From a virus: DNA of 29,426 bases. Of this stretch, positions 3,027-29,426 are shown one piece after another (positions within the stretch are counted from its first letter, which is position 1; each line of letters opens with the position of its first letter). Location of the stretch: UHGV virus genome UHGV-0124752; one strand, written 5' to 3'. Both the position numbers and the translations under genes were made by a program. The notes below the pieces were generated by a model that saw nothing but the letters and a program-made list of their open reading frames with translations, was not told the DNA's origin and did not search any database.

Positions 3027-3599
3027 TCAGGGGGATTCATTGCTCTTATTTGCCGGAAATTTTCTATAAATGGTAGAAATGCCCACATCAAAAATCAGTG
3101 CAATACGCTGTCTTGATTCTCCGGCCTCTAGTAAACGTCCAATCTGTGCCCACTGTTCGGTGGTCAACTTAGGACGGCGTCCACCTACTCTGCCTTTGTC
3201 GCGAGCTGCAGCAATCCCCGCCCTGGTACGTTCAACTATCAGTTCGCGTTCCATTTCAGCCAGGGCACCCATGACATGAAAAAAGAAACGGCCCATTGGG
3301 GTACTGGTATCAATACTGTCAGTCAGGCTTCGGAAATTCACGCCACGCTGGCGCAACTCTTCTATCAGCGTAACAAGATGCCGCATACTGCGTCCCAACC
3401 TGTCCAGCTTCCAGACAACCAGCGTGTCACCTGCCGATAGTGTCCTGAGTAGTTTTTTCAGCCCCGGTCTGTCGGACTTAGTGCCACTGATTTTGTCCTC
3501 AAAAATCCGCTCACATCCCGCACAGTTCAGTGCATTGCGTTGCAAATCGGTGTTCTGGTCATTTGTTGACACGCGTACATAGCCAATAAGCATGATCAT
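3027..3599 (-). CDS. Serine DNA invertase, Gin/Pin/Cin/Hin family
   Basis: N-terminus MLIGYVRVSTNDQNTDLQRNAL with catalytic Ser, TLVVWKLDRLGRS and GRFFFHVMGALAEMERELI motifs, C-terminal HTH. True start is probably the third Met (3593). Lies next to an inverted-repeat crossover site. Confidence 0.9.
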   Translation of the reverse strand: MIMLIGYVRVSTNDQNTDLQRNALNCAGCERIFEDKISGTKSDRPGLKKLLRTLSAGDTLVVWKLDRLGRSMRHLVTLIEELRQRGVNFRSLTDSIDTSTPMGRFFFHVMGALAEMERELIVERTRAGIAAARDKGRVGGRRPKLTTEQWAQIGRLLEAGESRQRIALIFDVGISTIYRKFPANKSNESP

Positions 3600-3648
3600 C
3601 CCCCTGAATAAAAACCGGAGATGATGCCAGTTAGCCGTTATCTCTGCA

Positions 3649-3674
3649 TTTTCATAAACGTTGGTTTGGGAGAA
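3649..3674. other. Invertase crossover site 1 (26 bp, gix/hix-like)
   Basis: ttttcataaacgttggtttgggagaa; its reverse complement TTCTCCCAAACCAACGTTTATGAAAA shares 14 identical leading bases with site 2 in inverted orientation. Confidence 0.75.
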
Positions 3675-4022
3675 GCGGCGAAAAGGGATGTAGGCACAGG
3701 AGAAAATCAGATACCGGATATGTCAGCCTGGAAAAGAAATCCGAGTTCTAATCGCTGGAGAAAATTGCCTGATGGAACCATCATTCAAATGGGAATATCA
3801 GCATCAGGGCCATTAGGCTCACCTGTAAATATCACCCTGCCGATATCTTTCAGCAATACCAATTATTGTGTTGTTGCATCGTACGATAATGCACGGTCAG
3901 GTGTGTCAACAATGGTTAGTTTTGCAGCGTTACCTGTTTCACCATCGCAATTTTCCCTAATGTCATCTGTGACTGAGCAAGGAATAAATCCTTTTGCTTA
4001 CTGGATTGCTTTTGGAGATTAA
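3663..4022 (+). CDS. Alternative tail-fibre C-terminal cassette, silent in the present orientation
   Basis: Frame opens at the crossover site with GLGEAAKRDVGTGENQ...; inversion would fuse it in frame to the constant part of H. The ORF-track start at 3621 lies outside the segment and is not a real start. Confidence 0.65.
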   Translation, partial: GLGEAAKRDVGTGENQIPDMSAWKRNPSSNRWRKLPDGTIIQMGISASGPLGSPVNITLPISFSNTNYCVVASYDNARSGVSTMVSFAALPVSPSQFSLMSSVTEQGINPFAYWIAFGD

Positions 4023-4025
4023 TAA

Positions 4026-4439
4026 ATGGACAGATACTTCTATTCACAAAAAGAAAATGGTTTTTTTACCGATTTAAATAAAGCACCTTCAGATGCTGTT
4101 GAGATAACCACGGATGAATGGCTGTTACTACTGGATGGTCAGGATAATGGCATGAAAATAGTCAGCAATCAGGAGGGATATCCGGTTTTGACAGAGCAAC
4201 CACCTTTATCAAAAGAAAACCTTATTGCATTGGCGGATTTGAAAAAAAGAAAACTTATTAATGAAGCCAACGAGCACATGAACAACAGACAATGGCCTGG
4301 TAAAGCGGCTATTGGTCGTCTGAAAAGTGAGGAACTGGCGCAATATAATTTGTGGCTGGATTATCTGGACGCACTGGAACTGGTCGATACTTCCGGTGCG
4401 CCAGATATTGAATGGCCTACGCCTCCGGTGGTGGAGTAA
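4026..4439 (+). CDS. Tail fibre assembly chaperone paired with the alternative cassette
   Basis: 137 aa; N-terminus MDRYFYSQKENGFF and C-terminus LVDTSGAPDIEWPTPPVVE are typical of enterobacterial Tfa proteins; starts 3 bp after the alternative cassette. Confidence 0.8.
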   Translation: MDRYFYSQKENGFFTDLNKAPSDAVEITTDEWLLLLDGQDNGMKIVSNQEGYPVLTEQPPLSKENLIALADLKKRKLINEANEHMNNRQWPGKAAIGRLKSEELAQYNLWLDYLDALELVDTSGAPDIEWPTPPVVE

Positions 4440-4585: not shown

Positions 4586-6268
4586 TCACCAATAAATAAT
4601 TACAATCCCGCTATGACCAGCACCAGTAACTCCGCCAATCTTTTTCGTTGCCAACCCAGCGCCACCACCGCCAGGACCTTTTGCATTACTGCCAACATTC
4701 CCCGCCGAATCTAAAACCTGTCCATGCCCGCCAGGACCACCACCGCTACCTCCGACAGCCGAATCAGTGCCTGCTATCATTGATGCACCAGGAGAGCCAG
4801 GGCCAAGAGACGTATTTATCTGCCCCCCCACACCTTTTCCCCCCGCTCCTCCGGATACCTGCCCCCCACCGTCTCCACCTGTTGCCGAGAGATATGCGCC
4901 AAAACTACTGGTGCCGCCAGGATTTCCATTTCTTGCTGACGTATTTTGACTTTCGCCACCACTGCCTACAGTGATTGTGACGGTGTCAATACCTGTTAAG
5001 TCAATGACGGACTCGCTCACACCACCGCCGCCACCGCCGCCGCCACCGGCAGCGTTCGTTAAGCTTATCGACGGGTAACCGCCAGACCCGCCACCGCCGA
5101 TAACCTTCACCCTGACGCGTCGGCCCTTTTTCACTATGTCAGGAACATTCCAGGTGCTGACGCCTGCATTATCAAATACAGCGCAATTTTGAGCGCCAAA
5201 TGTTGCTTCTCCCAAACCAAGGTATGTGAGAAGACCAGCTACATCCTTTCCACTCAAATTAGTCAGCGTATTGTCCAGCGGTTGTTTACCTGCTAGCGCA
5301 TTAAGCATTGTCGTGGCAAAGTTCGGGTCATTCCCCAGCGCCGCCGCCAGTTCGTTCAATGTATCCAGTGCCGCAGGTGCAGAACCCACCATTCCTGCAA
5401 TCGCCGATTGCACAAAAGCCGTAGTGGCAATCTGTGTATTGTTGACCGACTGTGCCGCAGTAGGTGCTGTTGGCGTTCCGGTAAGTGCCGGACTCGACAG
5501 CGGCGCTTTCAGTGCCAGCGCATTATTAATAGTGGTACTGAATTTCGGGTCATTGTTAATGGCTGCGGCAATTTCTTTCAGTGTGTCCAGCGTGGCTGGC
5601 GCACCGTTAATCAGAGCAGTAATAGCGGCCTGAACAAACTCTGTGGTCGCAATCCGAGTGGTGTTATTTCCTGCTGCAGGCGTCGGCGCTTTTGGTTCTC
5701 CGGTAAATGTCGGATTATGTTTCTGCGCATACTGGGTATGAGGATCTTGTGCGGCAATGTGGTTTCTCATCTGGTCATCCACATACAGCTTTAATTCCAG
5801 GACTTTATCATCCACGTATTTACGGGTTGCCAGCACTACAGCAGGGTCGATTTTCAGGATGATATTGTCCGTGCTGCTGGTAATCAGCACCATGCGCACG
5901 GTCTGGGTACGCCCGCTGCCTTCAGCCAGTTGCGGCTTATAGCTTTCCGGGCAGTTTCCCACGGCAATCAATGCCCCGGACTCATCAAACAGGCCCACTT
6001 CACGTATCCACCAACCGCCCTCGTTTTCAGGGATCACCTGTTCAGCAATAATCTGGCTACTGTTCTGCGGGTCGATATAAAGCATATTCAACGCAGCCCG
6101 GCGTTTCTCATTTACCAGTGCCGTCTGCTTTGCGTCCGGCGTCGGTAATACTCCGCCGCCATCGCCGACCGCCATATGGGTAATTTTTAGCGGCACACCG
6201 AGCGCGGCGGCGCTGGCAAGTTTCGCCGCGCCAATATCCGTCAGCAGGGTATAAAATTTTGTGCTCAT
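4586..6268 (-). CDS. H: Tail fibre protein: constant N-terminal part fused to the currently expressed variable C-terminus
   Basis: 560 aa; N-terminus MSTKFYTLLTDIGAAKLASAAALG matches the P2 H family; crossover site encodes LTYLGLGE at about residue 346; C-terminal part is glycine-rich. Confidence 0.9.
   Translation of the reverse strand: MSTKFYTLLTDIGAAKLASAAALGVPLKITHMAVGDGGGVLPTPDAKQTALVNEKRRAALNMLYIDPQNSSQIIAEQVIPENEGGWWIREVGLFDESGALIAVGNCPESYKPQLAEGSGRTQTVRMVLITSSTDNIILKIDPAVVLATRKYVDDKVLELKLYVDDQMRNHIAAQDPHTQYAQKHNPTFTGEPKAPTPAAGNNTTRIATTEFVQAAITALINGAPATLDTLKEIAAAINNDPKFSTTINNALALKAPLSSPALTGTPTAPTAAQSVNNTQIATTAFVQSAIAGMVGSAPAALDTLNELAAALGNDPNFATTMLNALAGKQPLDNTLTNLSGKDVAGLLTYLGLGEATFGAQNCAVFDNAGVSTWNVPDIVKKGRRVRVKVIGGGGSGGYPSISLTNAAGGGGGGGGGVSESVIDLTGIDTVTITVGSGGESQNTSARNGNPGGTSSFGAYLSATGGDGGGQVSGGAGGKGVGGQINTSLGPGSPGASMIAGTDSAVGGSGGGPGGHGQVLDSAGNVGSNAKGPGGGGAGLATKKIGGVTGAGHSGIVIIYW
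5021..5050. repeat. GGC/GGT codon repeat encoding a poly-glycine run in the fibre tip
   Basis: accaccgccgccaccgccgccgccaccggc on the plus strand; the minus strand encodes AAGGGGGGGGG. Confidence 0.6.
5207..5232. other. Invertase crossover site 2 (26 bp), inside H
   Basis: ttctcccaaaccaaggtatgtgagaa, an inverted copy of site 1 (14 of 26 bases identical from the conserved end). Confidence 0.75.
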
Positions 6269-14710: not shown

Positions 14711-16477
14711 ATGAACACCACACTGACACCCGCAGATCTCGATCCCCGTCGGCAGGCCATGCTGCTGTACTTTCAGGGATACCGCGTAGCCCGCATTGCT
14801 GAAATGCTGGGCGAGAAAGTTGCAACCGTTCACAGCTGGAAAAAACGCGACAAGTGGGGTGACTATGGGCCGCTGGATCAGATGCAGCTCACCACCGCCG
14901 CACGTTACTGCCAGCTCATTATGAAGGAGCACAAAGAAGGGAAAGATTTCAAAGAAATTGATCTGCTGGCGCGCCAGTCGGAGCGCCACGCGCGGATCGG
15001 CAAGTTTAACAATGGCGGCAACGAAGCCGATTTAAACCCTAACGTCGCCAACCGCAACAAAGGCCCGCGCCGTCAGCCTGAAAAGAATGTTTTCACCGAT
15101 GAACAGATTGAGAAGCTGGAAGAAATCTTCCATTCCTCCATGTTCAACTACCAGCGTCACTGGTGGGAAGCCGGAAAAACCAACCGCATCCGCAACCTGC
15201 TGAAGTCACGCCAGATCGGCGCGACCTTCTATTTTGCCCGTGAAGCCCTGATTGACGCCCTGCTAACCGGACGTAACCAGATTTTCCTTTCTGCCAGTAA
15301 GGCACAGGCGCACGTCTTTAAGCAGTACATCATCGACTTCGCCAAAGAAGTGGAAGTGGAGCTGAAAGGCGATCCGATGGTGCTTCCCAACGGGGCCACA
15401 CTGTATTTCCTCGGCACCAATGCCCGCACTGCCCAGAGTTACCACGGCAACCTGTATCTGGATGAATATTTCTGGATACCGAAATTCCAGGAGCTGCGCA
15501 AAGTGGCTTCCGGTATGGCTATTCACAAAAAATGGCGACAAACCTATTTTTCCACGCCATCCAGCCTGACCCACAGTGCTTATCCGTTCTGGTCCGGTGC
15601 GCTGTTCAACCGTGGACGCAACAAAGCCGACAAGGTGGACATCGACCTGTCCCACAGCAATCTGGCCCCCGGCCTGCTGTGCGCAGACGGGCAATACCGC
15701 CAGATAGTCACCGTAGAAGATGCGGTGCGCGGCGGCTGTAACCTGTTCGACCTTGACCAGTTGCGCATGGAATACAGCCCGGACGAATACCAGAACCTGC
15801 TGATGTGTGAGTTCGTGGACGATCTCGCGTCCGTGTTCCCGCTCAGCGAGCTGCAGGCGTGCATGGTGGACAGCTGGGAAGTCTGGACCGACTTTCATGC
15901 ACTGGCCCTGCGCCCGTTTGGCTGGCGCGAAGTGTGGATCGGTTATGACCCGGCAAAAGGTACGCAGAACGGCGACAGCGCCGGATGCGTGGTGGTGGCA
16001 CCGCCAGCCGTGCCGGGCGGTAAGTTCCGCATTCTTGAGCGTCACCAGTGGCGCGGAATGGACTTCCGCGCCCAGGCTGACGCCATCAAAAAACTGACCG
16101 AACAGTATAACGTGACCTATATCGGCATCGACTCGACCGGCGTCGGTCACGGGGTTTACGAGAACGTGAAAGCGTTTTTTCCTGCCGTCCGGGAGTTTGT
16201 CTACAACCCCAACGTTAAAAACGCCCTGGTACTCAAGGCCTACGACATTATCAGTCACCGCCGCCTGGAATTTGACGCCGGACACACCGACATTGCGCAG
16301 TCATTCATGGCAATCCGTCGCGCCACCACCGCCAGCGGCAACCGCCCGACCTATGAAGCCAGCCGCAGCGAAGAAGCCAGCCATGCCGATCTGGCCTGGG
16401 CAACAATGCACGCACTGTTTAACGAACCGCTGCAGGGCGAGTCCGCCAATGCCAGCAATATTGTGGAGATTTTTTGA
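14711..16477 (+). CDS. P: Terminase large (ATPase) subunit
   Basis: 588-aa ORF divergent from O and followed by the portal gene with a 4-bp overlap. Confidence 0.9.
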   Translation: MNTTLTPADLDPRRQAMLLYFQGYRVARIAEMLGEKVATVHSWKKRDKWGDYGPLDQMQLTTAARYCQLIMKEHKEGKDFKEIDLLARQSERHARIGKFNNGGNEADLNPNVANRNKGPRRQPEKNVFTDEQIEKLEEIFHSSMFNYQRHWWEAGKTNRIRNLLKSRQIGATFYFAREALIDALLTGRNQIFLSASKAQAHVFKQYIIDFAKEVEVELKGDPMVLPNGATLYFLGTNARTAQSYHGNLYLDEYFWIPKFQELRKVASGMAIHKKWRQTYFSTPSSLTHSAYPFWSGALFNRGRNKADKVDIDLSHSNLAPGLLCADGQYRQIVTVEDAVRGGCNLFDLDQLRMEYSPDEYQNLLMCEFVDDLASVFPLSELQACMVDSWEVWTDFHALALRPFGWREVWIGYDPAKGTQNGDSAGCVVVAPPAVPGGKFRILERHQWRGMDFRAQADAIKKLTEQYNVTYIGIDSTGVGHGVYENVKAFFPAVREFVYNPNVKNALVLKAYDIISHRRLEFDAGHTDIAQSFMAIRRATTASGNRPTYEASRSEEASHADLAWATMHALFNEPLQGESANASNIVEIF

Positions 16478-17508
16478 TGGGAAAGAGTAAGAAGAACCGC
16501 GCTGCGTCGACGAACCAGAACCAGCATAAAAGCCAGACTTCAGCCGAAGCATTCAGCTTCGGTGATCCCGTTCCTGTTCTGGACCGCCGCGAACTGCTGG
16601 ACTATGTGGAATGCGTACAGATGGATCGCTGGTATGAGCCGCCCGTCAGCTTTGACGGACTGGCACGAACCTTCCGCGCCGCCGTGCATCACAGCTCACC
16701 GATTGCGGTGAAATGCAACATTTTGACCAGCACCTACATCCCTCACCCGCTGCTCAGCCAGCAGGCTTTTTCGCGTTTTGTGCAGGACTATCTGGTTTTT
16801 GGTAACGCCTACCTGGAGAAACGCACGAACCGCTTCGGTGAAGTTATCGCCCTTGAGCCTGCGCTGGCAAAATACACCCGACGCGGGTTAGACCTGGATA
16901 CCTACTGGTTTGTGCAATACGGTATGACAACCCAGCCATATCAGTTCACGAAAGGCAGCATTTTTCATCTGATGGAACCGGACATTAACCAGGAGATCTA
17001 CGGCTTGCCCGGCTATCTTTCTGCCATTCCGTCCGCCCTGCTCAATGAGTCCGCCACGCTGTTCCGTCGAAAGTATTACATTAACGGCAGTCATGCTGGC
17101 TTCATCATGTATATGACCGACGCCGCGCAGAACCAGGAAGATGTGAACAACCTCCGCAACGCGATGAAAAGCGCCAAAGGTCCAGGCAACTTCCGCAACC
17201 TGTTTATGTACTCGCCTAACGGCAAAAAGGACGGGCTTCAGATCATCCCGCTGTCAGAAGTCGCAGCGAAGGATGAATTTCTGAACATCAAGAACGTGAG
17301 CCGGGACGACATGATGGCTGCACACCGTGTGCCGCCGCAAATGATGGGGATTATGCCGAGCAATGTAGGTGGGTTTGGAGATGTGGAGAAGGCCAGTCTG
17401 GTATTTGTACGTAATGAATTAATTTATCTACAAGGGCGATTAAAAGAAGTTAATTCTTGGGTGGGCGAAAAAATTATTTCATTCACCCAATACACTTTAG
17501 ATAATTAA
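16474..17508 (+). CDS. Q: Portal protein
   Basis: 344-aa ORF; the last ~36 codons are visibly AT-rich compared with the rest. Confidence 0.85.
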   Translation: MMGKSKKNRAASTNQNQHKSQTSAEAFSFGDPVPVLDRRELLDYVECVQMDRWYEPPVSFDGLARTFRAAVHHSSPIAVKCNILTSTYIPHPLLSQQAFSRFVQDYLVFGNAYLEKRTNRFGEVIALEPALAKYTRRGLDLDTYWFVQYGMTTQPYQFTKGSIFHLMEPDINQEIYGLPGYLSAIPSALLNESATLFRRKYYINGSHAGFIMYMTDAAQNQEDVNNLRNAMKSAKGPGNFRNLFMYSPNGKKDGLQIIPLSEVAAKDEFLNIKNVSRDDMMAAHRVPPQMMGIMPSNVGGFGDVEKASLVFVRNELIYLQGRLKEVNSWVGEKIISFTQYTLDN

Positions 17509-17559
17509 ATAACAATAAACCCGGTAAACCTTAAACATTGAAAAAGTGTTTGAGGTTAT

Positions 17560-18306
17560 TTAGTTTCTATAATTAGAAATATAGTCATCCATTTTAGCCT
17601 GCTCTATGATTCCACTATTTTTAATATACAAAACATTTGCCCAATCAAAATACTCACAAAGAATAACAATCATAGTCAAAAGCTTTTCATCAGTCATATT
17701 TATTAACAGCTCATATTGCTCAGCTTTTTTTTCACTTTCAACTTTATCATCTATCAACTTCACCAAAAGATAAAATCTTCTTACCAAAGAGAAAAAATGA
17801 TCATCAACATCTAAACTTTCCAACCATGCAATGATTCTTTTCTTTTCTATTCCAGCTCTAACCAAGATGCTCAAGTTATCATCAATGAAAGTTATAGCAT
17901 TATTAGATCTATACTCAATAAGTGTAGGTTCTTTGGTCCCCCCCCCTTTACTTTCATCATCATTATCTGCTCCATTACCGATTACAATACGCAATTTATT
18001 ATAATTAGAATCTTGAGATTCAATTAGACAGAAAAACCTCACTTCAAATTTTTTGTAATCTTCAAGTAACTCTTGTCTTTTTATCTCTTGTTTCAATGTT
18101 GAGTTAGACTGCACTTGTAAAGTTACAGAGCGAATCAGCAGGCAAATCGAGATAAAACTTAGTATAGGATTCAGGACCCCACCCATGAAGTCCCCAAATT
18201 GCCCCCAAACATCAGCATCTTGAGTACTTAAGTACCAGGGGCCAAACTTAATACAATAAACCCCCAAAACTATTATTATGAGAGCTAAACAAATTATTTT
18301 TAACAT
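17560..18306 (-). CDS. Cargo protein, unknown function: two N-terminal transmembrane helices plus a cytoplasmic domain
   Basis: 248 aa; hydrophobic helices LKIICLALIIIVLGVYCI and GGVLNPILSFISICLLI; AT-rich codon usage unlike the phage core; start 1 nt after the upstream gene's stop. Confidence 0.7.
   Translation of the reverse strand: MLKIICLALIIIVLGVYCIKFGPWYLSTQDADVWGQFGDFMGGVLNPILSFISICLLIRSVTLQVQSNSTLKQEIKRQELLEDYKKFEVRFFCLIESQDSNYNKLRIVIGNGADNDDESKGGGTKEPTLIEYRSNNAITFIDDNLSILVRAGIEKKRIIAWLESLDVDDHFFSLVRRFYLLVKLIDDKVESEKKAEQYELLINMTDEKLLTMIVILCEYFDWANVLYIKNSGIIEQAKMDDYISNYRN
17938..17946. repeat. Homopolymeric C9 tract (G9 on the coding strand) inside the membrane-protein gene
   Basis: ctttggt ccccccccc tttac; the minus strand reads aaa ggg ggg ggg acc, encoding KGGGT in frame. 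Confidence 0.8.
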
Positions 18307-18307
18307 C

Positions 18308-19126
18308 TTACTGCACCGTATGCACTAAATATTTCACAGTTTCCCCACTGTTAATTATTACCCGACTTACAGTCAGTTCAAGATAAATATAGCCAGCAGT
18401 GGAAGGCGGATTATTTACATGTAAGTTAGCCGAAATCATTCTTTTTTGAGCTGGAATGATGACACGTAAGGGGCTATAAAACCCAAATGCCACCGTATCA
18501 TTTTCGCCCTCAAGAACAAGCCTACCATTGCCAGTGCGAGCATTAAATCTTGTAATATAAGCCCTGATTACTTCAGTCTTTTTTAAAACACGTGATGTGA
18601 ATAAATTTGTTGCAGTAGATGTATCTAATTCAATTACTTTTTTCTTATCATGGGCACGCTGTTTAAAATTTAACTCGATATTATAGTTTTTTTTGAGATT
18701 AATTTCATGCATTCTTTTTAGAGGAGCTCGAATACGACCTATCAACTCATCCTCAATATCCGATAAACCTTTAACTACTTCTTCCGCTTCATTGGAAAGT
18801 TCGCGACTCTCTAAATATAATGATTGCGAAATAAAGAAACTCATCACTTCATTAAATACTGGTTTAGATATTTTGCGAAGTTCTGATACCAGTTCAGCAT
18901 CATTAATAACCAAGTCAAAATTTTGACCATAAGAACCGGTGAAATTCCTCTTGAGTACAGCCCTTGCAGGATTTACATGAGAGCGGCGCTTTATTATTAC
19001 TTTCCTAAGTATAGCCTCCGCCAACAAGCAAGTAACCTCTGCAGTTCCTGCAAGCGTGTCGAGACCGTATTCCATATCTACTTCATCATCGCCGCTTTTG
19101 ATAATAACATCGTAATTAACTCGCAT
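18308..19126 (-). CDS. Cargo protein, unknown function (soluble, 272 aa), first gene of a two-gene operon
   Basis: AT-rich ORF with RBS aaggaaag ahead of the ATG; I recognise no family motif. Confidence 0.7.
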   Translation of the reverse strand: MRVNYDVIIKSGDDEVDMEYGLDTLAGTAEVTCLLAEAILRKVIIKRRSHVNPARAVLKRNFTGSYGQNFDLVINDAELVSELRKISKPVFNEVMSFFISQSLYLESRELSNEAEEVVKGLSDIEDELIGRIRAPLKRMHEINLKKNYNIELNFKQRAHDKKKVIELDTSTATNLFTSRVLKKTEVIRAYITRFNARTGNGRLVLEGENDTVAFGFYSPLRVIIPAQKRMISANLHVNNPPSTAGYIYLELTVSRVIINSGETVKYLVHTVQ

Positions 19127-19163
19127 TTTCTTTCCTTACGAAAATAATTGCTTCCATTTTGGG

Positions 19164-19191
19164 ATTAATCTTAAATTAGCATAGCAGTCAA
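19164..19191 (-). promoter_or_regulatory. Candidate sigma70 promoter for the cargo operon
   Basis: Minus strand TTGACT, 16-nt spacer, ATTAAT, about 35 nt upstream of the 19126 start codon. Confidence 0.3.
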
Positions 19192-19230
19192 TGTTTTTGA
19201 ACAGCATAATCCTAAAAGCGGTAGCGCGCG

Positions 19231-19249
19231 CTCGTATCCCCGCCACGCC
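19231..19249. other. cos-like site (cohesive-end core)
   Basis: Minus strand reads GGCGTGGCGGGGATACGAG; the first 13 nt match the P2/186 cohesive-end sequence as I recall it. Flanked by an aaaagcgg/ccgctttt inverted repeat. Confidence 0.45.
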
Positions 19250-19290
19250 TGCCCGCTTTATGTAGTGGTTTTCATGCACCTGTATGAGCT

Positions 19291-19318
19291 ACGCAAAAGC
19301 CCGCCAGTTCTGGCGGGC
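19291..19318 (-). terminator. Rho-independent terminator for minus-strand transcripts
   Basis: GC-rich hairpin gcccgccag / ctggcgggc followed on the minus strand by TTTT; lies downstream of the DinI-like gene. Confidence 0.5.
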
Positions 19319-19453
19319 CTTAGCAAAAACGATCCTCAAACGATCATGCGATCTCATGCGGCATAGACATGCACTACAGAGCTAACGCCTCGCAAGGGCT
19401 CGTTGTTCAACCTTGCTGACGCCAGAAGCAAGTTCAGACGCCAGCAACGTTTC

Positions 19454-19687
19454 TTAATGCAGCCAGCTGTCGTCTTCCCACACCTTCTGCATAATTTTCA
19501 TCACTTGTTTTCTTTCTTCGTCCAGTTGCAGTCCGGTTAGTTCCACACCGTTAGAGCTACCTTTGCGAATGCGAATTACCGTTTTGGGATACAGGGGGCG
19601 CAGATTGCGGTAAAGCTCGGATTCAAGGGCGTCCAGGGTAGACTGGCTAATCTTCTGCTCTTTATCGATCATTATTTCAATGCGCAT
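19454..19687 (-). CDS. DinI-family protein
   Basis: MRIEIMIDKEQKISQSTLDALESELYRNLRPLYP...KVWEDDSWLH resembles DinI (MRIEVTIAK...ETWESADDWF); start placed at the Met with RBS gaggtg. ORF track gives 19454..19759. Confidence 0.75.
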   Translation of the reverse strand: MRIEIMIDKEQKISQSTLDALESELYRNLRPLYPKTVIRIRKGSSNGVELTGLQLDEERKQVMKIMQKVWEDDSWLH

Positions 19688-19697
19688 AAAAGTCACC

Positions 19698-19886
19698 TCA
19701 GCTGATGACATCCATTGAGCGGTTGTATTCGTGGGTTCTGATTTTTGCCATGAGTTCATCAGTCAATTCAGAAACCCACTGCAGAGCCAGCCCCTTCTCT
19801 TCATCACTACACTCACTAGCCGCTACAAGCTTAAGAAAAAAATCAATGCGCTGGAGCTTCAAAGACTCCAAAAAATAGTCCTGCAT
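19698..19886 (-). CDS. Small protein (62 aa) directly downstream of a LexA box; candidate antirepressor
   Basis: MQDYFLESLKLQRIDFFLKLVAASECSDEEKG...; strong RBS aggagg; start chosen inside ORF-track entry 19698..19988. Confidence 0.5.
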   Translation of the reverse strand: MQDYFLESLKLQRIDFFLKLVAASECSDEEKGLALQWVSELTDELMAKIRTHEYNRSMDVIS

Positions 19887-20039: not shown

Positions 20040-22454
20040 TTAATACAGGTTCCGCCAATGATCATCTTCCTGCAAACGCTGGTTCCGATAGAAGATACGC
20101 AGGCCTGCTCCTGACGGAATACTGCCTCCGCGAAGGAGTAAATCGACCTCTTTCTCGCTGCCATCAAATCCTCTGGACTTCAGCTCATACACGAGCTGCA
20201 GTCGCTGATGGTCTGTAATTCGCTGTTTGTAGTCTTTACGCCGTTTCGGTTTCACCAGGCATAACCTTGCTGCCAGTTCCCGGCGCTCTTTTTTGCTCAT
20301 ACTGTGCAGGTAATCGTGCAACTCCTTGTCATCCATGCTGGTAATGTCCGTTCTGGGGTCCCCATCAGCTGATTTATCTTTCTCCTGTTGGTTCAAATTT
20401 TCAGCAAGGGGACAGTTATTGCCACGAGTCCAAGGGGCGCAAGCGCCCTGGTCGGCTGCCGCCTCCTGAACGTCAACGGCCTTACGAACCATTTTCCACT
20501 TCACCGCATGAGTGCAGATCTTGCCCTCTGCAATGGGTGACCAGATGCCATAAATACGAATACCGTGATCGCCATATGCGGTCGGTTCTTCGTTGATTTC
20601 ATAAGCAGTTCTGATGAGGTGATATTTGCGGGGAACCAGTACGCCGCCCTGCTTCATGATGTAGGTGGCAAAACAACCAGCATCAGCAGCAGCCAGGATT
20701 GCATCAAGGCGCGGGTTATCCAGTACCGGCGCACCTGCTTTTTTGTCCCCCTGTTGCCTTGCCGCCTGACCAGCCAGCAATCGCAGTTCACGGTAAGCCT
20801 GACGCCCCGGAATGCCAAAGAAGCGGAATTGCTGAACACGATGCAGAGACGCCCAGGCATTAACGTATTCAGCGTTATCACGCAGGGATTTACCCGTTTC
20901 CTTGCTGATCTCGCCAGCCAGACCACGCCCGTCAATGTTCTTACTGATGTATTTCGCGATGTAGCTTGTTGGCGTACCTTTGCGCGGGTTTATCAGCTCA
21001 GACTTAAAGCGTGGTCCCGTGTTATTACCCAGCTCCTCGCGGTCTTCACGAATGGCAAACTTACGCAACAAAGCAGTAATGGTGCGGCGATCTTTTTTGC
21101 GCATAAAACACAACAGGTGCCAGTGAACTGTACCGTCATGATGCGGCTCAGCCACCCGCACGCCATACCAGCGCAATCCGGCTTTGTGCATCGCCTTACG
21201 AAATGCAGCAAACATGCCGACCAGATAATCACTGCTTTGTCTTACCGTCGTATTTGTCCAGGTCGGGTTGGGCCTGCCGTTATTTAGCGTGGAATGGAAA
21301 CGTGACGGACAGGTGATGGTGTAGAAAACGGCGCAGTCACCGCGCATTTCCGCGATAAGCTCCAGACCTTTAACACAGGCCATCATCTCATTGCGGCGAT
21401 GCGCAGGGTTGCTGCTGCTGGCGTTTACCACATCCTCCATGTCCAGCGTGTCGCCGTCTTCGTTCACCAGTTCATGAGAACGGAAAAACTCCAGCGACTT
21501 ACGGCGCTGCTCACGTTTATGCATCACGGCTTCATAGCTGACATAGGGAGATGCTTTTTTGCTGACCAGGCAAACAGCACGCAACTGCTCTTCCCGCCAT
21601 TCGCAACGCATCTTCCATAATTTCCGGTACCACCAATCGGCGCACAACATACGCGCCAGCGAACCCGGAATGAGTTTATAGGGCACGGGTTTACGGCGGT
21701 TTCTTTTCCGGCGGAGTTGCTCAAACGCAGGCGGTATGACATCCAGTCGCAGGGTTTCTGCTGCCACCTTTTCCCATGTCTTGCGGATTTCTTCTGGCTT
21801 AACGTCATCGGTGGCATACAAATCGCCACAAGCTGCATCAAGGCACATGCTCATATGCGCAGCAACAAGGGTGGACAGGCGTTTCACCTGATCCTGACTC
21901 ATTTCAGGTAGGATCAGCAGGCCGTCCAGCCCTTCATGGCTTGCCATAAAGCGAAAAGAAGTGGATAGCTGACTGTCGCGTACATGCTCCAGCCGTTCCA
22001 GACATGGCTTAATCGTCTCACGCAAATAGCGGGAATAAGCCTTTGGCCTGCCAAGGCTGCTGAAGTATTCAATACGTTGCATCAGCGGCCTGCTGATATG
22101 GGAAGGCTGGGCGTTAACGTCTGCCAGAATGACCATGTCCGGGTTAAAACGCTGCTGCTCATGCGCCAACTTTGCCCGGCTAATGAGCTTATCCTGCTCC
22201 ATTTCGCGCTGGACAGGATCACGGGATTCATTAAAGAAATAACGCTCCCAAACCTGATCACTCAGTGCCTCGCGGCGCAGTTGTTCCTGCTCGTTATCGG
22301 CAGCGTACAGAGTGATCAGGTTTGAAAGCGCAGAAACCGGCGCAACTTCCGCCGGGTCCAGATAAGGGTTAATAGCCTTTTTCGGGCTGTTCCATGAGAA
22401 TGCTGCGGCGGCCTCGTTAAAGCCGCTGCAGTTGTTCATATCAGCATGGCTCAT
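20040..22454 (-). CDS. A: Replication initiation protein (rolling-circle type)
   Basis: 804-aa ORF in the early operon, in the position of P2/186 gene A. Confidence 0.85.
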
Positions 22455-23308
22455 GCACGCACTCCGTACACGGCAGAACTATCCACGCCACGCGAAGGAT
22501 CAAATCCCACCCAGCAGCGCGGCCCGGAAACAGCGATGATTTCTGTTGCAGATTTACTCTCGCCAGCCGACACGCCGATGCTGCGTTTTGCCTTGATGTA
22601 GTGGTGAGTGAAATTTCGATACAGCGAACGGATCAGGGATGTGTCACTGTTAGAAACAATGACTGGATGACCTTCTGATGATCGATATTCAAGAACAGAT
22701 GCCAGGTGATACTGGTCATCTTCAGTGAAGCCGTCAGTGTGATAGCCGGAAAACGTACCGTCATAAGGCGGATCGCAATACACCACATCCCCCACCTGCA
22801 GCATCGCCAGCGTTTCATCAAAGCTTGCGCAGATAAACGTTGCTCGCTGGGCTTTCTCTGCAAATGCGCGAATTTCTTTTTCAGGGAAATACGGATTTTT
22901 ATAATTACCGTATGGAATGTTGAAATGCCCGCTCTTGTTATAACGACATAACCCACGGTAACCATGACGATTGAGATACAGGAAATATACCGCTTTCATG
23001 AAATCAGTAATTTCAGTTGAGTAATTAAACTCCTGCCTTATGTTGTAATAAGCCACCTCCCTGTTTGCTTCCTTAAATAAAACTCTGGCGCGAGATATAA
23101 ACGATTCACAATCAGCGGCAACCTTTTTATAGAGGTTGATTAAATCAGGATTAATATCCGCAACCAGATAGCTTGGATAATCCGTCGCCATCATCACAGC
23201 ACAGGAACCCGCGAAAGGTTCAACCAGTCGCGGGCCAGCAGGAAGGTGTTTTTTCAGTTCGGACATAATTGCGGTTTTATTTCCCGCCCATTTCAGGATG
23301 GTGCTCAT
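22451..23308 (-). CDS. Dam-like N6-adenine DNA methyltransferase
   Basis: LKWAGNK near the N-terminus, VEPFAGS AdoMet motif, DPPY catalytic motif; collinear with E. coli Dam. Start placed at [11 protein letters not shown]. Confidence 0.85.
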
Positions 23309-23532
23309 ACAGCACCTCCGTTGTAATGTTTGCCTTTCAGCTCTGCGATTTCCTGACAGGTAATGCAAAGCTGCACACCTGGAATGGCGCGGCGGCGTGC
23401 TGGCGGAATTGGCGCTTCACACTCAATGCAAAGCACGCGGGACACGCCCGGCATTTTGGCACGGGCAGCACGGATATGGCGCTGGCGTTCTTCTTCAACG
23501 CGCTGCTGTACGAGATCCATTGCATCAGCCAT
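23305..23532 (-). CDS. TraR/DksA-family C4 zinc-finger protein
   Basis: 75 aa with CIECEAPIP...CITCQ (four Cys in two CxxC pairs). Confidence 0.7.
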   Translation of the reverse strand: MADAMDLVQQRVEEERQRHIRAARAKMPGVSRVLCIECEAPIPPARRRAIPGVQLCITCQEIAELKGKHYNGGAV

Positions 23533-25478: not shown

Positions 25479-26048
25479 GTGACCATGAATTTGGAAAAAG
25501 GCGGTCGTGGGGCCATAGAGCGCATGGTTGAAGCCTATGGTTTCAAGACAAGACAAGCTTTGTGTGATCATTTGGGCATTTCTAAAAGCACCTTAGCCAC
25601 GCGCTATATGCGTGATTCATTCCCGGCAGAATGGGTAATCCAATGTGCACTTGAAACCGGCACGTCGCTAGAGTGGCTAACTACTGGGCAAGGTTCAAAA
25701 GAAAGTTCACAAAAAGAAAACACAAAAGAGATCGAAAGGAAGATTTTATCAAGCGGAAAACTACTTCCTGATGGTTACTACATTTTCGACAACAACTTTT
25801 TGCCTGAAAAACTAAAAAAACCTTTTGTTGTGATCGATGGCGCATCAGAGTTTATCTGTGATTCGGATTATGAGGATGTACGTGATGGTAAGTGGATCGT
25901 TGATATTGATGGCGAGGTTGCTATCAGGAATCTGACAAGACTGCCGGGGCGTCGTCTAAATGTCGATGGTGGCAGCAGTTCCTTTGAATGCAAAATAGAT
26001 GAAATTGATATCATAGGAAAAATTAGAAGCGCGATCGTCAATTATTAA
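25479..26048 (+). CDS. cI: Immunity repressor, phage 186 CI type
   Basis: 189 aa; ...EAYGF...[15 protein letters not shown]... N-terminal HTH region and [23 protein letters not shown]-terminal region resemble 186 CI. Confidence 0.8.
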
Positions 26049-26257: not shown

Positions 26258-26268
26258 GGTTGCTTCAT

Positions 26269-27600
26269 ATGAATAATGATATGACTTTTGAAAACAGAGA
26301 TGAGTATAATAGAAAAATCATTGCTGAAAAAATAATAAGCTTACTCGAGTCCCCCTTAAAAATATCCCCTATTGTTATCGATGGGGACTGGGGTACCGGT
26401 AAAACCGAATTTTCAAAAAAATTAGCGGCATTGATTGAAAAAAATGAATCTGGGCATAAAGTAGTATATATTGATGCATTTACTGAAGATCATAATGATG
26501 CTCCCATACTTACTATAATGGCTGCAATAGTTGCATTATATCCAGAGAGTGAAAAGAAGGAATTAATATCAAAGGCATTACCAGCATTGAGATTTGGACT
26601 TAAAACTGTACTCAAAGCTGGCGCTGGGTGGATTTTAAAACAAAATGCAGATGATATTGCGGATGAATTCGAAGATGCTATTAAAGATGCGGCTAACTCA
26701 GCTATAGATGGTACTGTAGAAGCACTGCTTGATGATCATATTGAAGCAAAGAAACATTTGCTTGCTCTCAAGGAAGTACTTGCTGAACTAACTAGCGAAA
26801 ATAAAATAACAATTATCATTGACGAACTTGACCGTTGTAAACCAAGCTTTGCCATCTCTATCATCGAAAATATAAAACATGTTTTTGACACTGAAAATCT
26901 TAACTTCTTGTTAGTTGCTAACATCTCACAATTGAAAGCATCAATAAATCATATTTACGGTGCAGGTGTTGACTCAGAAAGATATCTTGATAAATTTATA
27001 AAATTCACTTACAGCCTGCCAGTGACTTTCACTGAAAACAATTACGATAAAATTTTGGCTTCGAACTCTCATTTTAGAATGCTATGTAACGAGTCTGAAA
27101 GACTAAAAGAAATTGGAGAAAGTAGTATTCATATAGTTCAAAAATTTATCGAACTAAAAGGCTTGTCGCTACGGGAAGTTGAAACCTTATCAAGATATCT
27201 AGAAATTTATCAAATTTTATCTCAAAATGAAATCAGCAATAAATTTATACCAGGCTATTGCTGTTATCGAACCCTTGCAGTAATTCTTTATTCGTTTGGT
27301 CGTGAACTGGCCCTTAACTACGTAGAAGATAAAATAGATGCACAATTAATAATTAATTTCTTCGGTGTTAATAGACTCCCATATCAGACAGATCAATATA
27401 ACATCAACATCTACTATTATGCATTATTTGGTATAACTTATAAATATATGCCAGAAGGTTCTCCTTTACTTCCTTCTGAAAACGATGAAAAAAACAGATG
27501 GGCTGAAATAAGTGATTATCATATTTTAAAAGGAAATGCAGGTGTAGAAGACCCTGTTAGAATATTCAAAAACACCTTAAAAGTTTTCTTGCTCCAATGA
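26269..27600 (+). CDS. KAP-family P-loop NTPase
   Basis: Walker A IDGDWGTGKTEF and Walker B IIIDELDRC; AT-rich. ORF track starts at a TTG (26260); ATG 26269 has an RBS. Confidence 0.8.
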   Translation: MNNDMTFENRDEYNRKIIAEKIISLLESPLKISPIVIDGDWGTGKTEFSKKLAALIEKNESGHKVVYIDAFTEDHNDAPILTIMAAIVALYPESEKKELISKALPALRFGLKTVLKAGAGWILKQNADDIADEFEDAIKDAANSAIDGTVEALLDDHIEAKKHLLALKEVLAELTSENKITIIIDELDRCKPSFAISIIENIKHVFDTENLNFLLVANISQLKASINHIYGAGVDSERYLDKFIKFTYSLPVTFTENNYDKILASNSHFRMLCNESERLKEIGESSIHIVQKFIELKGLSLREVETLSRYLEIYQILSQNEISNKFIPGYCCYRTLAVILYSFGRELALNYVEDKIDAQLIINFFGVNRLPYQTDQYNINIYYYALFGITYKYMPEGSPLLPSENDEKNRWAEISDYHILKGNAGVEDPVRIFKNTLKVFLLQ

Positions 27601-27682: not shown

Positions 27683-28735
27683 ATGGCAGTACGAAAACTC
27701 ACCACAGGAAAATGGCTGTGCGAATGTTATCCCGCCGGACGTAGTGGACGTCGTGTGCGTAAACAATTCGCCACCAAAGGCGAAGCTCTGGCTTTTGAGC
27801 GTCACACGATGGAAGAAACCGAAGCAAAGCCTTGGCTAGGTGAATCAGTGGCTCGTCGAACACTGAAAGACGTGGTTGAGCTATGGTTCAAATTACATGG
27901 TAAATCTCTGACTGCTGGGCAGCATGTCTATGACAAATTGCTGCTGATGGTTGACGCTCTGGGCAATCCTCTTGCAACCGATCTCACCTCTAAAATGTTT
28001 GCCCACTATCGAGATAAACGCCTGACAGGTGAGATCTACTTCAGCGAGAAATGGAAGAAAGGAGCCAGCCCGGTCACCATTAACCTGGAGCAAAGCTATC
28101 TAAGTAGTGTTTTTAGCGAACTATCCCGCCTGGGCGAATGGTCGTATCCAAACCCACTGGAGAACATGCGAAAATTCACCATCGCAGAAAAAGAGATGGC
28201 ATGGCTTACCCATGAGCAGATTGTTGAACTGCTGGCTGATTGCAAACGTCAGGACCCAATTCTGGCACTGGTAGTCAAGATATGCTTAAGCACAGGCGCA
28301 CGCTGGCGAGAAGCAATAAACCTTACCCGATCACAGGTGACTAAATACCGAATTACCTTTGTAAGAACGAAGGGGAAGAAAAACAGAAGCATCCCTATCA
28401 GTAAAGAGCTTTATGAAGAGATCATGGCGCTTGATGGGTTCAATTTCTTCACAGACTGCTATTTTCAATTTTTATCCGTGATGGAAAAAACGTCAATCGT
28501 GCTCCCTCGCGGTCAACTGACACACGTTCTGCGCCATACGTTTGCGGCACATTTCATGATGTCGGGTGGAAATATCCTTGCTTTGCAAAAAATCCTCGGA
28601 CATCACGATATAAAAATGACTATGCGTTACGCTCATCTGGCACCGGATCATCTGGAAACGGCGCTCCGTTTCAATCCTCTGGCAACGCTGCCAAGTGGCG
28701 ACAAAGTGGCGGCAGCGGTTGGCATTACCCCGTAA
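27683..28735 (+). CDS. int: Tyrosine integrase (P2 family)
   Basis: 350 aa with the conserved C-terminal catalytic region (ARWREA, HVLRHTFA, MTMRYAHL with Tyr). Confidence 0.9.
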   Translation: MAVRKLTTGKWLCECYPAGRSGRRVRKQFATKGEALAFERHTMEETEAKPWLGESVARRTLKDVVELWFKLHGKSLTAGQHVYDKLLLMVDALGNPLATDLTSKMFAHYRDKRLTGEIYFSEKWKKGASPVTINLEQSYLSSVFSELSRLGEWSYPNPLENMRKFTIAEKEMAWLTHEQIVELLADCKRQDPILALVVKICLSTGARWREAINLTRSQVTKYRITFVRTKGKKNRSIPISKELYEEIMALDGFNFFTDCYFQFLSVMEKTSIVLPRGQLTHVLRHTFAAHFMMSGGNILALQKILGHHDIKMTMRYAHLAPDHLETALRFNPLATLPSGDKVAAAVGITP

Positions 28736-28839: not shown

Positions 28840-29376
28840 CTACCCTGCAACCCTCTCAACCATCCTCAAAATCTCCTCGCGCGATAGCGGCTTACGGTCG
28901 GTGACAAAATGCAGCGTCATCCCCTCAATAAACGCATCAAGCGCGCGGGCGGTTCCGGGTTCAAACCATTGTTCGAGCGTTTGCTGACTGCGCTGCATCC
29001 AGTTTTGCATTACCGTTTTTAATAGCGGTTTTCGGCTAGCCAGCGCGTAGAGCTGGTACATCAGCTCCATGTTATCCGGCGTTGCAACCTGTGAGCTGTA
29101 GATCATATCGGTGATAGCCTGGCATGCGCCCGGAGCATCACTAACATCGCTAAAAAATGCCTGATATTGCCGGGACATGATCTCAGTAAAACTGCTGAAC
29201 GCCTCCAGTAACAACTCATCAATTCCTGAAAAATAGTAGGTCATCGATCCCAACGGTACCCCGGCAAGGGTAGCAATTTTGCGGTGCGTAACAGCATGTA
29301 TTCCGTAAAGTTTCACCGCCTCCAGCGTGGCCTGGATAATTTTTTCTCGCCGTTGCGGATCGTTAGCGCGACGCAT
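28840..29376 (-). CDS. rcdA: TetR-family transcriptional regulator, probably host chromosome
   Basis: N-terminal TetR HTH ([24 protein letters not shown]); 178 aa from MRRANDPQ; recalled as E. coli YbjK/RcdA-like but not verified. Composition differs from the phage cargo. Confidence 0.7.
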
Positions 29377-29426
29377 GTCATTTCCTCTCTCTGCAATTGT
29401 GTACAAATGTACACAACCTTGCTAAT

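Follow-up and report, generated by a model that had tools for sequence, protein, structure and literature searches.

A putative AbiC-type membrane protein and its coupled OB-fold partner form a mobile two-gene cassette beside the portal gene of a P2-like prophage

Which function is encoded by the AT-rich cargo that lies between the portal gene and the cos-like site of the viral genome UHGV-0124752? The analyzed stretch of 29,426 nucleotides (nt), referred to here as the window, carries two minus-strand genes in this slot: gene A (18308-19126), encoding a cytoplasmic protein of 272 amino acids (aa), and gene B (17560-18306), encoding an inner-membrane protein of 248 aa. An earlier note, made from the letters alone, had singled out the pair as a candidate for an undescribed anti-phage system. 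On the basis of profile and structure comparisons, the pair most likely represents an AbiC-type abortive-infection (Abi) protein with an obligate OB-fold partner rather than a wholly undescribed kind of system.

The general anatomy given in the earlier note proved to be correct. Both open reading frames (ORFs) were found at the positions given above, joined by a 1-nt spacer (TAA-G-ATG, 18304-18310, minus strand) as expected for translational coupling, and an AAGGA Shine-Dalgarno sequence is located 6 nt upstream of the start of A. Open frames of 272 and 248 codons have probabilities of ~1e-10 and ~9e-10, respectively, at the local composition, and the ORFs are therefore not due to chance. The span of both genes (17560-19126) has a GC content of 0.348, whereas the late genes reach 0.546-0.547 and the replication side 0.505, and GC content at third codon positions was 0.29-0.30 in A and B as opposed to 0.62-0.70 in the portal and terminase genes. 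The composition of the pair is clearly foreign, as had been proposed. Both genes are under purifying selection: relative to the Pectobacterium allele, the nonsynonymous distance (dN) was 0.08 for A and 0.23 for B at saturated synonymous sites, and dN/dS could not be computed for most allele pairs because of this saturation. Promoter- and terminator-like matches found in the region by consensus scan were not commoner than in shuffled sequence, and the native promoter and expression signals of the pair are for this reason only assumed. Where the portal and B genes converge, an inverted repeat (17527-17557) might act as a weak terminator; its hairpin was not better than those of shuffled sequences (-8.2 kcal/mol, z -0.75).

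The earlier description of B as a protein with two N-terminal transmembrane (TM) helices and a cytoplasmic domain was upheld by hydropathy, charge bias, and an AlphaFold2 (AF2) model. Two hydrophobic segments were evident, TM1 at about aa 3-21 (aa 2-21 in the model) and TM2 at about aa 40-58, and the predicted hairpin of TM1, acidic periplasmic loop, and TM2 is encoded at 18133-18300 (minus strand). Over 40 B homologues, the N terminus was positively charged, the loop was acidic, and 5.2 Lys/Arg residues followed TM2. Because these charges fit the positive-inside rule, an N-in/C-in topology with a cytoplasmic C-terminal domain is predicted. The best-conserved element of B, WGQFGDxxGGxxNP, is located at the periplasmic start of TM2 and forms the core of the near-invariant motif V-W-G-Q-F-G-D39-x-x-G-G-x-x-N46-P47-x-L-S-F (18154-18210, minus strand), as delimited by alignment invariants. 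The cytoplasmic part (17563-18132, minus strand) consists of a stalk, a variable acidic insert, and a helical bundle according to the AF2 model and hhalign. In the model (predicted local distance difference test (pLDDT) score 85), a single helix spanning aa 31-103 holds TM2 and extends into the cytoplasm as the stalk; next comes the acidic insert, which is disordered (aa 113-124, pLDDT <50), and the helical bundle (aa 134-236) aligns to the putAbiC domain region. With its paired N-terminal TM helices and the helical extramembrane domain that follows them, B has the architecture of AbiC. The segment of aa 104-133 is rich in Asp, Asn, Glu, and Gly and highly variable in length and sequence among alleles; specificity might be determined by this insert. 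The B gene of one metagenomic 186-like prophage (L017, 7816-8525) is split in two (a called product of 173 aa; two tblastn segments), possibly as a pseudogene or by an assembly error.

The family of B was not revealed by direct searches. No Pfam match was obtained (PF16872 included, E<=1), NCBIfam yielded noise, PADLOC gave only short TM or otherwise weak matches, and neither a fold nor a sequence match to the PDB was found. B belongs to phrog_8999 (E 6e-55), a group of unassigned function. An exhaustive profile search with the B family retrieved 6604 representative clusters at E<=1e-3, 100 of them at E<=1e-30. Relatives at E ~1e-19 to 1e-20 carry PF16872 in their C-terminal part with 38-54 bits, above the gathering score of 22 bits, and they share the TM motif of B as well as a matching GxYFRxIYxIxKFID/RAQLSxxEL pattern. 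When the B family was compared with these relatives by hhalign, the probability was 99.9% (E 1.7e-33), with 222 aligned columns that extend across the putAbiC region. The comparison set had been picked from matches to the B profile, so the N-terminal part of this alignment is partly circular, but its C-terminal extension is not. Intermediate relatives of B are named "putative phage abortive infection protein" in RefSeq, and some submitters have given the same name to B-family members. PF16872 is the DefenseFinder model for AbiC (DefensePredictor supplements). AbiC is a validated lactococcal Abi protein with two TM helices, which lowers capsid protein production; its extramembrane domain can be superimposed on the corresponding domain of AbiP, with which it is grouped as AbiC/P, and AbiP is anchored in the membrane and binds RNA better than single-stranded DNA (ssDNA) (PMC13064643, a review of 2026). 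By these comparisons, B is a divergent protein of the AbiC/putAbiC (PF16872) superfamily, whose membership is remote but clear and which current models fail to detect.

Protein A is soluble, as the earlier note had stated; neither a hydrophobic segment nor a signal peptide was found. It belongs to phrog_13337 (E 5e-84; function unassigned), and its AF2 model (pLDDT 90.9, predicted template modeling score 0.81) shows two domains. The N-terminal alpha/beta domain (aa 1-176; 18599-19126, minus strand) is DUF7946-like, and no fold match to it was found. The C-terminal domain (aa 179-271; 18314-18592, minus strand) is DUF7947-like and is modeled as a five-stranded barrel of the order b1-b2-b3-helix-b4-b5, an oligonucleotide/oligosaccharide-binding (OB) fold. 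DUF7946 and DUF7947 correspond to PF25678 and PF25679, each with a gathering score of 27 bits. In Pfam, the A protein of the window did not match DUF7946 and reached 16.1 bits for DUF7947. Among 58 relatives of A, weak matches were found to DUF7947 in 35 and to DUF7946 in 12, counted by E-value (E<=0.1) with bit scores not set against the cut-off. Scanning metagenomes for the best-conserved motif of A led to remoter proteins that scored 30-52 bits for DUF7946, above the cut-off, and nearly passed for DUF7947. In a joint alignment of the 58 A-family sequences with eight remote ones, Gly27, Ser65, His140, Thr171, and T192-R-x-N-x-x-T-G-N-G-R202 were kept in all remote sequences. Judged from these alignments, A is a divergent DUF7946/DUF7947 protein.

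The invariant residues Arg193, Asn195, Gly201, Arg202, Phe214, Phe216, Lys265, and Tyr266 of A map to b1, the L12 loop and b2, to b3, and to b5, i.e. to the usual binding face of OB-folds. In the model, the resulting basic and aromatic surface pattern, TRxNxxTGNGR...FGF...KY, looks typical of single-strand nucleic acid binders. Because OB-folds also bind metals, sugars, and proteins, a ligand for A can be proposed only provisionally. Pfam, NCBIfam, and fold searches revealed no antitoxin-like DNA-binding domain, bacteriocin domain, or recognized enzymatic fold in A, and it matched none of the PADLOC families. The profile hidden Markov model and structure searches that the earlier note had proposed did not match the pair to any PADLOC system, but via relatives they yielded families for both proteins. 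Its statement that neither protein could be assigned to a known family does not hold, since B is a remote AbiC/putAbiC protein (PF16872) and A is a DUF7946/DUF7947 protein with a C-terminal OB-fold. Neither of the two resembles a housekeeping protein or a structural phage protein.

The linkage between the two genes is strict. A was directly followed by B on the same strand in 89 of 89 testable loci, comprising 18/18 fetched genomic loci, 20/20 loci on IMG/VR viral contigs plus one metagenomic contig, and 51/51 metagenomic loci with room downstream; three further metagenomic loci end at a contig edge and are outside the last count. Pairing holds from 100% identity down to 24% for A and 28% for B, and the spacing stays tight across the family, with a gap of 1-2 nt or an overlap of 4-14 nt. 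The identities of both proteins drop together, that of B always being lower (A/B 89/67, 64/45, 54/45, 42/34, and 39/28%). Partner A was still present at a B-profile E-value of 1.5e-30 (locus L020). It was gone at 2e-24, in a gene that stands alone at the moron position of a prophage, and at 2e-21, in a solo putAbiC gene between alr and radA; a further solo putAbiC gene is located between purE and purK. As the partner is lost only in remoter relatives of B, the A-paired clade is deduced to be a distinct branch of a mostly single-gene superfamily. Within this clade, B was always preceded by A, and the solo state was confined to more distant relatives; the pair therefore does not qualify as a single-gene system.

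The remote DUF7946/DUF7947 proteins sampled, on the other hand, were found solo (loci L046, L050, L059, L089, and L117), with either a serine recombinase or an XRE regulator plus a cytosine methyltransferase encoded nearby. Gly27, Ser65, His140, and the OB loop are invariant in paired and solo forms alike. On one metagenomic contig (L158, 1-2483), the gene for a DUF7946 protein (52 bits) immediately precedes that for an OLD-family ATPase/TOPRIM nuclease (AAA_15, AAA_21, OLD-like_TOPRIM), and still further upstream a protein of 510 aa is encoded that combines an AAA_25 ATPase domain with a C-terminal helix-turn-helix (HTH) domain. This single example hints that A-type modules may pair with different effectors.

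The pair is widely distributed. The exact allele is present in 5 of 5426 complete Escherichia coli genomes, in the same slot every time. Diverged alleles (64% and 54% identity for A) are common in the same slot of 186-like prophages, one of them being indexed in 437 collection blocks, and members of single 90%-identity clusters occur on 200-600 contigs across Escherichia, Salmonella, Serratia, Klebsiella, and Enterobacter. Of 19 IMG/VR contigs, 17 belong to the P2 family and carry the pair between gpA/DinI and the portal gene. It also occurs in one isolated Klebsiella phage, on a Pseudomonas island with integrase and resolvase genes, on Chromobacterium chromosomes between housekeeping genes, and on IncX1 conjugative plasmids of Salmonella Typhi and E. 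coli (L164, pTy004_02), where it adjoins genes for an "Abi family protein" and a 263-aa hypothetical protein. On the ColRNAI (ColE1-type) plasmid pKP1906522_4 (L163, 4652 bp), A and B were the only cargo found among the four of five annotated features that were seen (Rop, an HTH protein, A, and B).

Comparison of individual prophages pointed to exchange at this site. L040 shares 99, 94, and 96% identity with the window in terL, portal, and gpA, compared with 48 and 36% in A and B; the respective values are 94, 88, and 83% versus 44 and 37% for L005. The opposite was seen for L003, with 71, 68, and 33% in the backbone and 89 and 67% in the pair. These identities indicate that phage backbone and A-B cargo are uncoupled and that the cassette is swapped as a unit. 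The exchanged cassette was delimited as 17486-19223, because DNA homology to L040 in blastn stops at 17485 and resumes at 19224. The block that follows (19224-19373) is conserved among relatives. It holds the cos-like 19-mer GGCGTGGCGGGGATACGAG (19231-19249, minus strand), which has a single match in the window, forms the right boundary of the slot, and resembles the cos site of P2. The left boundary is the portal gene Q (16474-17508, plus strand), which is convergent with B and annotated as phage portal protein in relatives. A second variable point was noticed on the gpA side of cos (~19375-19443), where relatives with the same A-B allele have extra, unrelated genes that are absent from the window: hypothetical proteins of 280 and 71 aa in L001 (5076-6324) and one of 111 aa in L002 (5077-5847).

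The assignment of the slot between the portal and the cos/replication genes to the defence cargo site of P2 was likewise confirmed. Experiments have validated the stretch of P2-like phages from gpA/cos to the portal gene as a defence hotspot, which harbors old, tin, and many other genes (PMC9122126; PMC9519451), and it has been described as such elsewhere (10.1101/2024.10.15.618418). Fast swapping at P2/P4 hotspots has been reported for defence cargo, and about one-fifth of P2-like prophages were reported to lack a recognizable defence gene at the main defence locus (PMC13586616). In Table S5A of Rousset 2022, WP_040075599 and WP_040075596 appear only as "hypothetical + hypothetical", a rare arrangement that was not cloned, and WP_001407037, a protein of the 54% allele, is likewise given only as "hypothetical". 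A literature search returned no mention of DUF7946, DUF7947, the WP accessions of the pair, or its PHROG identifiers. A and B are absent from the DefensePredictor supplements, and no relevant mention of the pair was found in a domain-centric paper in Nucleic Acids Research (2026), the iLund4u preprint, a metagenomic-selection preprint, or Vassallo 2022. No system of PADLOC-DB 2.0 (2023) was matched by both components. This database includes the Rousset, Vassallo, and Millman systems. The view of the pair as an undescribed candidate thus stands in part: it has no PADLOC model and is listed only as untested hypotheticals, but B belongs to a known Abi superfamily.

What, then, does the cassette do? 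Its anatomy, its homologies, the strict A-B linkage, its mobility, and the swapping of alleles are observed. The validated hotspot, the AbiC homology of B, strict pairing, mobility, and allele swapping argue for a role in defence, as does the modularity of A-like proteins seen in the DUF7946 protein next to an OLD-family nuclease. We consider it about an even chance (roughly 0.5) that A and B constitute a self-contained, horizontally exchanged two-component defence module of the AbiC type, in which A senses and B acts at the membrane. We infer its defence function, ligand binding by A, the direction of signaling, and the membrane effect as follows. A lysogen would produce A and B in fixed proportion via translational coupling. 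A would recognize an infection cue through its OB-fold, most plausibly single-stranded phage nucleic acid or a protein bound to it, and would then act on the cytoplasmic helical bundle of B. B would compromise the inner membrane or otherwise block late phage development, as AbiC does, so that infection by the competing phage would abort and the population carrying the P2-like prophage would be spared. The invariant Asp, Gly-Gly, and Asn-Pro of the B hairpin are polar or helix-breaking, and the long stalk is suggestive of oligomerization.

Several points weigh against this reading. The membership of B in the AbiC superfamily is transitive only, and PF16872 was missed by all 40 aligned B-family members (E<=0.1). 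Homology does not guarantee activity either, because one study saw no protection by a lactococcal AbiC-like protein that is 38% identical to AbiC (PMC11381338), and the mechanism of AbiC itself is not known (PMC13064643). The hotspot also carries non-defence cargo, namely partition systems and the CDT toxin (PMC9122126), and no phenotype of the pair or of a close homologue was found in the papers and supplements searched. As A-like and B-like proteins both occur stand-alone, neither strictly needs the other in general. Moreover, B diverged faster than A in every allele comparison, which would fit B rather than A facing the phage.

A more detailed version of the proposal can be put forward tentatively and may well be wrong. 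Here, the DUF7946/DUF7947 OB-fold protein would sense phage single-stranded nucleic acid, or carry a Ser/His-centered activity, and would gate the AbiC-type protein via the WGQFGDxxGGxxNP hairpin. The pair would then represent a previously unnamed two-component family.

The faster evolution of B, together with the existence of stand-alone A-like and B-like genes, means that the roles of sensor and effector could also be reversed. B would then be a membrane-anchored sensor, whose AbiC/AbiP-like domain and acidic insert meet a phage cue such as nucleic acid at the membrane, and A would be the effector, an OB-fold-guided enzyme or binder with Ser65/His140 and the TRxNxxTGNGR loop as candidate active or binding site. 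The lower identity of B in all allele pairs and the cytoplasmic location of its most variable, disordered segment are in line with this idea, as is the binding of RNA and ssDNA by the extramembrane domain of AbiP (PMC13064643). The solo occurrence of remote DUF7946/DUF7947 proteins indicates that an A-type protein can be self-sufficient, and the invariance of Gly27, Ser65, His140, and the OB loop extends to these solo forms. However, no enzymatic fold was recognized in the N-terminal domain of A, and solo AbiC-type proteins suffice for Abi in Lactococcus, so that the membrane protein can be the effector. We regard such a reversal as the main rival, though an unlikely one.

The remaining explanations are less likely still. 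The location of B in the inner membrane raises the question of whether it acts, with A, in superinfection exclusion, stopping incoming phages at DNA entry or at an early step while the cell survives. Many prophage exclusion systems are small membrane proteins, B is prophage-encoded with a conserved periplasm-facing loop and TM motif, and the slot is used for cargo of inter-phage competition. This mode of action is nevertheless distinctly improbable: a cytoplasmic OB-fold partner is atypical of exclusion systems, the pair is not restricted to prophages but is also found on chromosomal islands and plasmids, and the homologous AbiC acts late, lowering capsid protein, and not at entry (PMC13064643).

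Strict pairing and translational coupling would also be expected of an addiction or toxin-antitoxin-like module, in which a membrane toxin B is restrained by A and stabilizes the carrier element, with an anti-phage effect that is secondary or absent. That A and B are the only cargo found on a 4.65-kb ColE1-type plasmid and occur on many kinds of mobile element points in the same direction. Both proteins, however, far exceed typical membrane toxins and antitoxins in size, no antitoxin-like DNA-binding domain is present in A, B-type proteins are often stand-alone and B is consequently not intrinsically lethal, and rapid allele replacement at a conserved site of the phage is more readily explained by arms-race cargo than by a stabilizer. 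In our view, little probability attaches to addiction. Least probable of all is a pair concerned with lysogenic conversion, membrane physiology, or bacteriocin immunity that resides in the hotspot by chance: partition systems and the CDT toxin do occur there and small ColE1 plasmids often carry bacteriocin operons, but A lacks a signal peptide, a secretion or lysis partner, and a bacteriocin domain, the sole functionally characterized relatives of B are Abi proteins, and the pair adjoins another Abi family gene on IncX1 plasmids.

The surroundings of the cassette are those of a P2-like prophage. The terminase gene (14711-16477, plus strand) precedes the portal gene, and a DinI-like gene (19454-19759, minus strand) and the gene for the replication endonuclease gpA (20040-22454, minus strand) lie beyond the cos-like site. 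Rfam and tRNA scans of the whole window revealed no RNA genes. A D12-class Dam-like N6-adenine methyltransferase gene (22451-23368, minus strand) overlaps the start of gpA by 4 nt and might serve in anti-restriction or self-marking. A KAP-family P-loop NTPase of 446 aa (26260-27600, plus strand; Pfam E 4e-51) is encoded between the CI repressor (25479-26048) and integrase (27683-28735) genes, a site that looks like a second accessory-gene slot of the same prophage; KAP NTPases occur in defence-hotspot arrangements in the tables of Rousset 2022. A Hin/Gin-type serine invertase gene (3027-3599, minus strand) adjoins a Gp53-like C-terminal tail-fibre fragment (3621-4022, plus strand), which is followed by a tail-fibre assembly gene (4026-4439, plus strand). 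The fragment and the assembly gene are opposite in strand to the tail-fibre gene (4586-6268), and the group (3027-4439) probably represents an invertible switch of host range in the Z/fun-region hotspot. A TetR-family regulator gene just past the integrase gene (28840-29406, minus strand) probably belongs to the host chromosome that flanks the prophage end.

To a specialist the find may be unsurprising, because untested systems are known to abound in P2 hotspots. AbiC was reportedly cloned in 1992 and is said to be part of every defence catalogue; we know of nothing that describes how it senses phages or acts on the membrane. Its relatives form a very large superfamily of >6,600 sequence clusters that has been an orphan since 1992. 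An AbiC-like clade with an obligate small, well-folded OB-fold partner would offer a tractable entry to it, as there are two separable components and clear targets for point mutation, i.e. Asp39, Asn46, and Pro47 of B and Arg193, Arg202, Phe214, Ser65, and His140 of A. The pair lives in E. coli, and near-isogenic P2 prophages provide a natural allelic series. If A indeed gates B via the membrane hairpin, this would be the first mechanistic handle on the AbiC superfamily, and DUF7946/DUF7947 would be a reusable sensor module for different effectors, AbiC-like here and an OLD-family nuclease on the metagenomic contig L158. The pair would also add a missing model to annotation tools. Even if not defensive, it would be a widely mobile two-gene module.

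How do A and B compare with known systems? Sub-threshold matches in the Pfam, NCBIfam, and PADLOC scans of both proteins (ArgRS catalytic domain, RamB, IL-10, PRK09040, and PDC-M43A) were taken as noise. The W..FGDFM...LI.S sequence of TM2 in B resembles the ZorB3 TM profile of PADLOC, to which 29 of 40 family members showed a weak match over aa 28-80 (E 3e-5 at best), and a TM helix that begins with an Asp is found in ZorB/MotB as well as in B. Membership in Zorya was rejected and the similarity was considered a motif resemblance, as the cassette contains no ZorA/MotA partner, no OmpA-like domain was found, and the predicted topology is opposite, with the Asp at the periplasmic end and the C terminus in the cytoplasm. 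With lambda RexAB and the RexAB-like Sucellos, the pair shares the two-gene layout on a prophage or mobile genetic element, in which the gene for a cytoplasmic protein of ~270-280 aa precedes that for a membrane protein believed to dissipate membrane potential. Four TM helices are present in RexB, whereas B has two and a large cytoplasmic domain; neither a Rex match in Pfam or PADLOC nor RexA among the fold matches listed was found, and this relationship was rejected as well. Old and Tin of P2 occupy the same genomic slot and have the same presumed role in inter-phage competition. They share no sequence or domain similarity with the pair, and the ATPase and TOPRIM nuclease domains that make up Old are absent from A and B.

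The closest counterparts are the two families identified here. A has the two-domain layout of DUF7946/DUF7947 proteins and their invariant Gly27, Ser65, His140, and TRxNxxTGNGR, but in the window it scores below both cut-offs, and the remote proteins sampled are solo or stand beside an OLD-family nuclease gene instead of an AbiC-like gene. B differs from AbiC in that it misses the PF16872 model and resides in a Gram-negative host with a P2 prophage as vehicle; furthermore, it is coupled to A, whereas AbiC works alone and the sampled solo putAbiC genes occur alone. Nevertheless, B and AbiC have in common two N-terminal TM helices with a helical extramembrane domain, the motif WGxFGDxxGGxxNP, full-length profile homology, and carriage on mobile elements.

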